From the sequence record MK327936.1: 64,000 nt of DNA. One strand, given 5' to 3'. This stretch comes from Escherichia phage vB_EcoM_G2540. Under the pieces are notes generated by a model. It saw only the letters and a list, made by a program, of their open reading frames with translations, made no database searches and was not told the origin of the DNA. Positions 2,971 to 6,744 of this stretch are shown piece by piece. The position numbers and the translations under genes were made by a program. Positions within the stretch are counted from its first letter, which is position 1, and each line of letters opens with the position of its first letter.

Positions 2971-4595
<1,625 letters not shown>

Positions 4596-4596
<1 letters not shown>

Positions 4597-4841
4597 TGGA
4601 AGGTTTAATTGAAGCTATTAAATCAAACGACCTCGTAGCCGCTCGTAAATTATTTGCTGAAGCCATGGCTGCAAGAACGATTGATTTAATTAAAGAAGAA
4701 AAAATCGCTATCGCTCGTAATTTCTTAATCGAAGGTGAAGAACCTGAAGACGAGGATGAAGATGAAGATGATGACGAAGATAGCGATGATAAAGACGACA
4801 AAAAAGACAAAGACTCTGACGAAGACGAGGATGATGAATAA
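4596..4841 (+). CDS. 67: Prohead core protein gp67 with acidic Asp/Glu-rich C-terminal tail
   Basis: 81 aa ORF; TAATG stop/start overlap with gene 20; conserved position between 20 and 21. Confidence 0.8.
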
Positions 4842-5266
4842 TGCTTCTGATCCCTGAAACTCATGAATTAGTTCTCGAGAATGTCGAAGCACTTATTCCT
4901 GAAGCACAGGGTCGCTTTGACGAATTGTCTTCTGCTTTAAATAAAGACGATATAAATACAATTGTCGAGAATATGCTTGATGATGAAACTGATTTAGCGG
5001 TTGCATTAGCTTCTATTAATGAAAATATGCCGTTAAATGAATTCATCGTTAAACATGTTTCCGCCCGTGGTGAAATTACTCGCACTAAAGACCGCAAAAC
5101 GCGTGAACGTAATGCATTTCAAACCACTGGACTGTCTAAAGCAAAACGTAGACAAATTGCTCGTAAAGCTACCAAAACGAAGATTGCCAATCCAGCAGGT
5201 CAATCTCGTGCTCAGCGTAAGCGTAAAAAAGCTCTTAAACGCCGTAAAGCATTAGGATTAAGCTAA
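4841..5266 (+). CDS. 68: Prohead core protein gp68, basic C-terminus
   Basis: 141 aa; start overlaps gp67 stop (TAATG); position between 67 and 21. Confidence 0.8.
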
Positions 5267-5904
5267 TGAATGAACCCCAATTACTAATTGAAACTTGGGG
5301 TCAACCTGGCGAAATTATTGATGGCGTACCAATGCTTGAATCTCATGATGGAAAAGACTTAGGTTTAAAACCGGGTTTATACATCGAAGGAATATTCATG
5401 CAAGCGGAAGTTGTCAATAGAAATAAACGTCTTTATCCAAAACGTATATTAGAAAAAGCGGTAAAAGACTATATTAATGAGCAAGTTTTAACTAAACAAG
5501 CTCTCGGAGAATTAAATCATCCTCCACGCGCTAATGTTGACCCAATGCAAGCCGCTATCATTATAGAAGATATGTGGTGGAAAGGAAATGACGTATACGG
5601 ACGAGCTCGTGTTATTGAAGGTGACCATGGTCCTGGAGATAAATTAGCAGCTAATATTCGTGCCGGATGGATTCCAGGAGTTTCTTCTCGTGGATTAGGT
5701 TCATTGACTGACACAAATAAAGGTTATCGTATCGTAAACGAAGGATTCAAATTAACTGTAGGTGTTGATGCAGTATGGGGTCCAAGTGCTCCAGATGCAT
5801 GGGTAACTCCTAAGGAAATTACCGAATCACAGACGGCGGAAGCCGATACAAGTGCCGATGACGCCTATATGGCTCTCGCAGAGGCCATGAAAAAAGCGTT
5901 ATAA
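5266..5904 (+). CDS. 21: Prohead core scaffold protein and maturation protease gp21 (212 aa)
   Basis: 212 aa, size and position as T4 gp21; start overlaps gp68 stop. Confidence 0.9.
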   Translation: MNEPQLLIETWGQPGEIIDGVPMLESHDGKDLGLKPGLYIEGIFMQAEVVNRNKRLYPKRILEKAVKDYINEQVLTKQALGELNHPPRANVDPMQAAIIIEDMWWKGNDVYGRARVIEGDHGPGDKLAANIRAGWIPGVSSRGLGSLTDTNKGYRIVNEGFKLTVGVDAVWGPSAPDAWVTPKEITESQTAEADTSADDAYMALAEAMKKAL

Positions 5905-5934: not shown

Positions 5935-6744
5935 ATGCTTAAAGAACAACTGATTGCCGAAGCGCAGAAAATTGATGCTTCCGTTGCTCTTGATAGTATT
6001 TTCGAATCAGTTAATATTTCTCCGGAAGCAAAAGAAACTTTCGGCACTGTATTCGAAGCTACCGTCAAGCAGCACGCCGTTAAATTAGCTGAATCTCATA
6101 TCGCTAAAATTGCTGAAAAAGCAGAAGAAGAAGTAGAAAAAAATAAAGAAGAAGCCGAAGAAAAAGCTGAGAAGAAAATCGCTGAGCAAGCTTCTAAATT
6201 CATTGACCATCTTGCAAAAGAATGGCTCGCTGAAAATAAATTAGCAGTTGATAAAGGCATCAAAGCCGAACTGTTTGAATCCATGCTTGGTGGATTAAAA
6301 GAGCTCTTTGTTGAACACAACGTTGTTGTTCCAGAAGAATCAGTTGATGTTGTAGCTGAAATGGAAGAAGAGCTGCAAGAACATAAAGAAGAATCAGCTC
6401 GTCTGTTCGAAGAACTCAATAAGCGTGACGCATATATCAATTATGTGCAGCGTGAAGTGGCATTGAGCGAAAGTACTAAAGATCTGACTGAGTCTCAAAA
6501 AGAAAAAGTCTCTGCTCTGGTCGAAGGTATGGATTATTCAGATGCATTCTCAAGTAAATTGAGTGCAATCGTAGAAATGGTGAAGAAATCTAATAAAGAT
6601 GAAAGCACTATTACTGAGAGTATAAATACTCCTGATACTGAAGCAGCCGGACTGAATTTCGTCACTGAAGCTGTAGAAGATAAAGCTGCACAAGGTGCAG
6701 AAGATATTGTAAGTGTATATGCGAAAGTCGCATCTCGTTTCTAA
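5935..6744 (+). CDS. 22: Major prohead scaffolding core protein gp22 (269 aa)
   Basis: 269 aa, Glu/Lys-rich coiled-coil composition; late promoter TATAAATA at 5900-5907. Confidence 0.9.
   Translation: MLKEQLIAEAQKIDASVALDSIFESVNISPEAKETFGTVFEATVKQHAVKLAESHIAKIAEKAEEEVEKNKEEAEEKAEKKIAEQASKFIDHLAKEWLAENKLAVDKGIKAELFESMLGGLKELFVEHNVVVPEESVDVVAEMEEELQEHKEESARLFEELNKRDAYINYVQREVALSESTKDLTESQKEKVSALVEGMDYSDAFSSKLSAIVEMVKKSNKDESTITESINTPDTEAAGLNFVTEAVEDKAAQGAEDIVSVYAKVASRF
6621..6628 (+). promoter_or_regulatory. Candidate late promoter for gene 23 located inside gene 22
   Basis: Exact TATAAATA about 135 nt upstream of the gene 23 start. Confidence 0.4.

Follow-up and report, generated by a model that had tools for sequence, protein, structure and literature searches.

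The gp67 gene and its neighbours

The DNA analysed here is a 64,000-nucleotide stretch of Escherichia phage vB_EcoM_G2540 (MK327936.1), hereafter the window. [quoted passage not shown] The 81-residue product matched the Pfam family GP67 (PF17634) along its full length (E = 3.3e-46; 156 bits, the cutoff being 27; residues 1-81 aligned to all 80 profile positions) as well as PHROG 1064, "prohead" (E = 2.7e-31). The corresponding gene is named gp67 in the annotations of T4 and of Yersinia phage PST, its GenBank label in T4 being "gp67 prohead core protein, precursor to internal peptides". The product is the gp67/PIP prohead core protein of T4-type phages, the identity that a preliminary description of this DNA had given it. 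Its build also fits the shape of the family as seen in the alignment and among family representatives, i.e. a conserved head of about 46 residues followed by an acidic tail, with a total length of about 65-100 aa. The order portal gene 20, gp67, 68/21 was the same in all 15 phage records that we fetched, which cover 11 named genera and two unclassified phages. In T4, gp67 is an essential, cleaved component of the core (Table 1 in PMC9026906), and mutations in gp67 and gp68 give rise to isometric instead of prolate heads (PMC1079782). Rao & Black 2010 make no mention of gp67, and a search for solved structures with sequence similarity to gp67 found none.

Table 1. Coordinates of the genes, protein features and other reading frames at the gp67 locus (window positions)
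Feature	Position	Strand	Basis or remark
Portal gp20 (Portal_T4)	3010..4596	+	Upstream of gp67
gp67 (PIP) prohead core protein gene	4596..4841	+	81 codons + TAA; ORF, Pfam, PHROG, T4/PST annotation
N-terminal 46-residue head domain	4596..4733	+	Helices 2-9 and 13-44 predicted (AlphaFold single-sequence model)
L4-I5-E6, second candidate gp21 site	4605..4613	+	Motif scan
I32-K33-E34, third gp21 motif match	4689-4697	+	Motif scan
L44-I45-E46↓G47, predicted gp21 cleavage site	4725..4736	+	L/I-X-E motif match at tail start
Acidic tail G47-E81	4734..4838	+	Predicted released peptide, 35 residues
Imperfect GAN-codon tandem repeat	4745..4781	+	TRF, periods 6/12/18; within acidic block 1
A6 run, codons K69-K70	4800..4805	+	Within the conserved 12-residue middle motif
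GAGGA, Shine-Dalgarno-like for gp68	4827..4831	+	In the last acidic codons, 9 nt before the gp68 ATG
gp68 prohead core protein	4841..5266	+	ORF, PHROG 1049
gp21 prohead protease	5266..5904	+	Pfam Peptidase_S77, E = 1.5e-111; enzyme expected to cut gp67
gp22 scaffold	5935..6744		Downstream of gp21
Spurious Ser-rich ORF	4547..4864	-	105 aa; overlaps the gp20 end and all of gp67
Spurious Lys/Thr/Met-rich ORF (+2 frame)	4735..4857	+	40 aa; frame entered by the frameshifted PE37 record

Stop-start overlaps of the form TAATG join gp20 to gp67 (4594-4598), gp67 to gp68 (4839-4843) and gp68 to gp21 (5264-5268), the last A of the gp67 stop codon being the first base of the gp68 start codon. These overlaps suggest translational coupling. 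The end of gp67 reads GAC GAG GAT GAT GAA TAATG and so contains GAGGA, and this element was found 5-13 nt upstream of gp68 in every relative in which gp67 abuts or overlaps gp68, whereas the Karamvirus and Erwinia phages, in which the two genes are separated, carry their own TAAGGAG instead. A GAGGA for gp67 itself lies at about 4585-4589, within acidic C-terminal codons of gp20 (…QEQEDF). As to the start of gp20, the mechanical ORF list opens the gene at a TTG and gives 528 aa, while the T4 and PST annotations place it at an ATG 12 bases downstream (window position 3022; 524 aa, MKFNVLSLF…).

The acidic tail and its variation among relatives

The C-terminal tail of gp67 holds 27 Asp and Glu among its 35 residues, the others being four Lys, two Ser, one Gly and one Pro; its net charge is -23 and its mass calculates to 4,107 Da (4,106.7 Da). 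In the DNA, GAN makes up 27 of the 35 codons and 76% of the bases are purines. The preliminary description, which had reported a tail of almost nothing but Asp and Glu with a few Lys and Ser encoded by GAx-rich DNA, was accurate in this respect; the span that it assigned to the tail (4731-4841) is essentially right but begins with the E46 codon and ends with the TAA stop codon (4839-4841), and the 33-residue string that it quoted corresponds to gp67 residues 49-81. In all six frames of the 64-kb window the gp67 tail is the only stop-free stretch of 35 residues with at least 18 Asp plus Glu, and in 20 shuffled windows the maxima were 8-12 per 35 residues; the acidity of the tail is far beyond chance. 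A single-sequence AlphaFold model of gp67 renders the tail, at moderate confidence (pLDDT 57-69), as coil, with no secondary structure from residue 45 on. The stretch is the known C-terminal polyanionic tail of gp67, ordinary for T4-type phages and already part of known biology.

The DNA of the tail is of low complexity and holds an imperfect repeat detected by TRF, and the antisense Ser-rich ORF, with 105 aa, is longer than gp67. One could therefore argue that the acidic run is a triplet-repeat sequencing or assembly artefact, or that the antisense ORF is the real gene, two possibilities to which we give practically no credence. The 601 bases around the tail showed an identity of 100% with Yersinia phage PST and of 98.8% with T4 and matched 771 phage records, and the exact 81-residue gp67 was present on 36 contigs, including that of phage RB5 (P0001). 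Because the same sequence recurs in independent genomes, the assembly error that the preliminary description had allowed for is excluded. Furthermore, the forward frame corresponds over its whole length to a curated family, and the length differences among relatives are in-frame. The run of Ser in the antisense ORF arises because consecutive GAN codons, when their complementary strand is read with an offset of one base, yield TCN, which is never a stop codon. This run occurs in the same antisense frame in 12 of 12 relatives, with open stretches of 74-234 codons, two of which are interrupted at the end, and the ORF is annotated in none of the fetched records. Given its varying limits, its overlap with gp20 and gp67 and its absence from the annotations, we rejected the antisense ORF as a gene and, like the preliminary description, consider it spurious, a by-product of the GAN codons.

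A one-base difference that breaks the frame, which could also be taken to speak for an artefact, is found in the record of Escherichia phage PE37 (NC_054929.1, 497-748), where A5 replaces the A6 of the window and other relatives (4800-4805). The gp67 annotated in PE37 shifts frame in the middle of the tail and overlaps gp68 by 17 nt. Either the A5 is an error of homopolymer sequencing or the distal acidic tail of PE37 is naturally truncated. Programmed frameshifting at A6 was considered and rejected, since the run is not in slippery-heptamer register and the shifted frame occurs in the PE37 record only. Three traps for annotators lie in this low-complexity stretch: the Ser-rich ORF on the antisense strand, the ORF in the alternative frame, and frameshifts at homopolymers, as in PE37. 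Several database entries (P0121, P0073 and P0043, and hit H41) carry oddities of other kinds: a gp67 cluster bears the name "long tail fiber distal subunit" (phage HY03), a gp67 copy is filed under Enterococcus faecalis, and a T4-type gp67 head with 100% identity stands in a record that is labelled as a Pseudomonas phage (vB_PSGBLB0006). These odd records look like problems of annotation, contamination or labelling.

Comparison with T4 shows the same gene order (gp20-gp67-gp68-gp21), an identical 46-residue head, the same LIE↓GEEP junction and a tail built likewise of an acidic block, an 11-residue middle stretch and DEDEDDE. The tail of the window is one residue longer, with an extra Asp in block 1, and carries Lys where T4 has Glu (KDKDS versus KDEDS), so that 35 residues with a net charge of -23 stand against 34 residues with a net charge of -24 in T4. 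The gp67 proteins of Yersinia phage PST and phage RB5 are identical to that of the window.

To describe the variation on a larger scale, we used the 120 best database homologues, all of them at the level of Tequatrovirus. The 46-residue head occurred in 22 variants without internal indels (one homologue lacks its first two residues), whereas the tail occurred in 79 variants with lengths of 31-40 residues. Tail lengths were 20-42 residues in the other aligned genera and 16-54 residues across the family, as represented at 50% identity. The length of the tail does therefore differ between relatives, as the preliminary description had supposed, and the contrary case that it had named, a tail identical in all of them, is not what is found. 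The net charge ranged from -19 to -28 in the close relatives and from -7 to -24 among the representatives, and strong acidity was kept in every family member, down to 43% head identity.

In the 120 homologues the tail is composed of 51% Asp, 26% Glu, 11% Lys and 6% Ser and is laid out as GEEP, a first acidic block, a Lys-containing middle motif and a second acidic block. Indels lie in the two acidic blocks, and when the DNA of the window was aligned with that of T4, T6 and sb4, every gap had a length divisible by three. Block 1, with 8-14 residues, is the main site of length change. The 12-residue middle motif is identical in 80 of the 120 homologues, and block 2 reads DEDEDDE in 86 and DEDDEDEDDE in 24 of them. 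That block 2 is the least variable acidic block is probably due to its last codons, which carry the GAGGA of gp68. Judged from these sequences, the tail is conserved in composition (about 77% Asp and Glu with a small Lys/Ser cluster) and not in sequence or length, and the constraint on composition with freedom of length extends across Straboviridae. We read this combination as the signature of selection for bulk charge and disorder, the tail evolving by codon slippage and exchange of Asp and Glu.

A predicted gp21 cleavage site at the tail start and the fate of the tail

The gp21 protease cleaves after Glu in the motif L/I-X-E (PMC9026906) and cuts gp67 into fragments (PMC9026906; PMC9958956). 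A scan of the window gp67 for this motif, the positions of which the preliminary description had proposed to check, gave LIE at residues 4-6, IKE at residues 32-34 and LIE at residues 44-46, and the last of these is invariant in the family. The conservation was examined in an alignment of 12 sequences: the window (Tequatrovirus pst), T4, two Mosigvirus, and one each of Dhakavirus, Gelderlandvirus, Kanagawavirus, Karamvirus, Gualtarvirus, Biquartavirus, Lazarusvirus and an unclassified Erwinia phage. E46, G47 and E48 were invariant and I45 nearly so, and [LIVM]-x-E↓G-E was found at residue 46/47 in all 12 phages. When residues 1-50 were searched against 1.84 billion 50%-identity representatives, only 17 family members were retrieved, 16 of them new, and in 15 of the 16 an acidic tail follows [IV]-E↓G-E at residues 45-47; the remaining one, P0121, joins gp67 residues 1-33 to unrelated sequence. 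The head measures 45-47 residues in the 15 representatives with an intact junction as well as in the 12 phages of the alignment. The tail thus begins at the E↓GE junction, a predicted protease site, and nothing else in the second half of the protein is conserved as well as this site.

Mosigvirus, Karamvirus, Gelderlandvirus and Acinetobacter phages do not share the N-terminal motif as they do the site at residue 46, L4-I5-E6 being replaced by LIQ in RB69, by FIS in Karamvirus and by IIK in an Acinetobacter phage. The sequence MEGLIE↓A at the N-terminus of the window gp67 resembles a short cleavable leader of the kind borne by the T4 internal proteins.

The size of the fragments bears on which part of gp67 persists. 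For T4, Table 1 in PMC9026906 gives 341 copies of gp67 per prohead and, for the mature head, 139 copies of a "3.9 kDa fragment", so that about 40% of the copies of this fragment are retained. The calculated mass of the T4 tail, residues 47-80, is 3,992 Da, compared with 4,458 Da for residues 7-46, 3,060 Da for residues 7-34 and 5,131 Da for residues 1-46. Among the gp21-bounded fragments of T4 gp67 the tail alone fits the published 3.9 kDa, a match that is approximate and by mass only. On the basis of the motif and of this match in mass, gp21 most likely cuts gp67 after Glu46 in L-I-E↓G during head maturation. Because only its mass fits, we identify the tail with the partly retained gp67 fragment: most likely, as mass and motif suggest, it is released and partly kept in the mature head as an internal peptide. 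Its composition also fits the classical acid-soluble internal peptide of the T-even phages, which is rich in Asp, Glu and Lys. The idea of the preliminary description that the tail may be removed thus gains support as far as the predicted cut is concerned, the LIE46↓G47 site standing at the tail start throughout the family; it needs refinement in that the fragment of matching mass is not simply lost but partly retained. Most fragments of the core leave the head, according to reviews (PMC9026906; PMC9958956).

Proposed role of the polyanionic tail

A counterpart of opposite charge is encoded next to gp67. The last 60 residues of gp68 (about 5084..5263) have a net charge of +21, and this C-terminal charge is conserved at +19 to +23 in 12 of 12 phages; the basic tail of gp68 looks like a mirror image of the acidic tail of gp67. 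From the copy numbers, the gp67 tails would contribute about -7,800 charges per prohead and the gp68 tails about +5,000. The charges of the two tails were not correlated across the 12 phages (Spearman rho 0.09, p 0.79), the charge of the gp68 tail being nearly constant while that of the gp67 tail varies two-fold. A strict pairwise match of charge between gp67 and gp68 is unsupported, since the tail charges do not co-vary.

The explanation that we consider highly probable as a whole is that the stretch is the polyanionic C-terminal tail of gp67, an essential but minor constituent of the T4-type scaffolding core, and that it is cut off at E46↓G47 and partly retained as a peptide of about 4 kDa; in the core it may have an electrostatic role. 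According to this proposal, the helical head would dock gp67 into the prohead core, and the disordered polyanionic tail would pair electrostatically with basic core and internal proteins, so that the core would stay in solution and properly spaced until it is taken apart by proteolysis. The protease gp21, encoded two genes downstream, would then cut after Glu46 and free the tail peptide of about 4 kDa, which in T4 would correspond to the 3.9 kDa gp67 fragment. Variation in length would come about as GAN codons of the imperfect triplet repeat are gained or lost in frame, and it would be tolerated because only bulk charge matters. An electrostatic role in the core is an inference, though the one that we favour. 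What also counts against the explanation, besides the missing covariation of charge, is that a strongly acidic peptide kept beside packed DNA is not obviously useful.

The missing covariation with gp68, and the freedom with which the sequence and the length of the tail drift (16 to 54 residues), would equally suit a tail without a specific partner, a disposable appendage that only lends solubility to the helical head or takes up space in the core and diffuses out after cleavage, the retained copies being merely trapped. The departure of most core fragments from the head and the retention of only about 40% of the copies point in the same direction. We regard such an appendage as rather unlikely, though worth keeping in mind: strong acidity is kept across deep divergence, to 43% head identity, and both the G-E-E of the junction and the Lys cluster are conserved. 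The conservation of charge implies selection for more than bulk.

The persistence of 139 copies in the mature head also raises the thought that the acidic peptide is injected and acts as a DNA-mimicking polyanion that decoys DNA-binding defence proteins of the host, its variation being the product of an arms race. Two internal head proteins of T4, IPI and Alt, are injected into the host, whose functions they affect (PMC9026906; PMC9958956), and the tail, with 79 variants among close relatives compared with 22 of the head, might be taken to evolve rapidly. The variation, however, is nearly all exchange of Asp and Glu plus triplet indels that leave the density and character of the charge unchanged, a pattern that fits slippage and neutral third-base changes and not diversifying selection. 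No result here links the peptide to any defence system, and the conservation of gp67 is already explained by its being essential for assembly. An injected effector of this kind is improbable in our view, and the version in which about 140 copies per head are co-injected with the DNA as a tunable DNA-mimic decoy, triplet slippage supplying variants of length and charge, a shade more so.

The analysis bears out the existing annotation as correct and puts the predicted maturation cut at E46↓G47, which matters little beyond housekeeping; what a polyanionic peptide does within a head full of DNA is a long-standing, minor question. The locus offers nothing new in kind, the additions being the invariance of the E↓GE junction throughout the family, the quantified variation in length and the argument from mass for the retained fragment.

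Two known systems are close to gp67 in processing. The internal proteins of T4 are likewise small, resident in the core and processed by gp21 after Glu in L/I-X-E, but they lose a capsid targeting leader of about 10 residues and their large remainder is kept, whereas gp67 has its conserved cut at residue 46 and the piece kept is most likely the C-terminal tail. The T4 scaffold gp22 is also cut by gp21 at L/I-X-E, with a small piece (2.5 kDa) partly retained in the head, and the gp22 of the window likewise has Glu/Lys-rich stretches. Unlike gp67, gp22 is a coiled-coil-type scaffold of 269 aa that the family scans did not relate to gp67 by sequence, and it has no polyacidic tail, in line with the six-frame count of Asp and Glu in the window.
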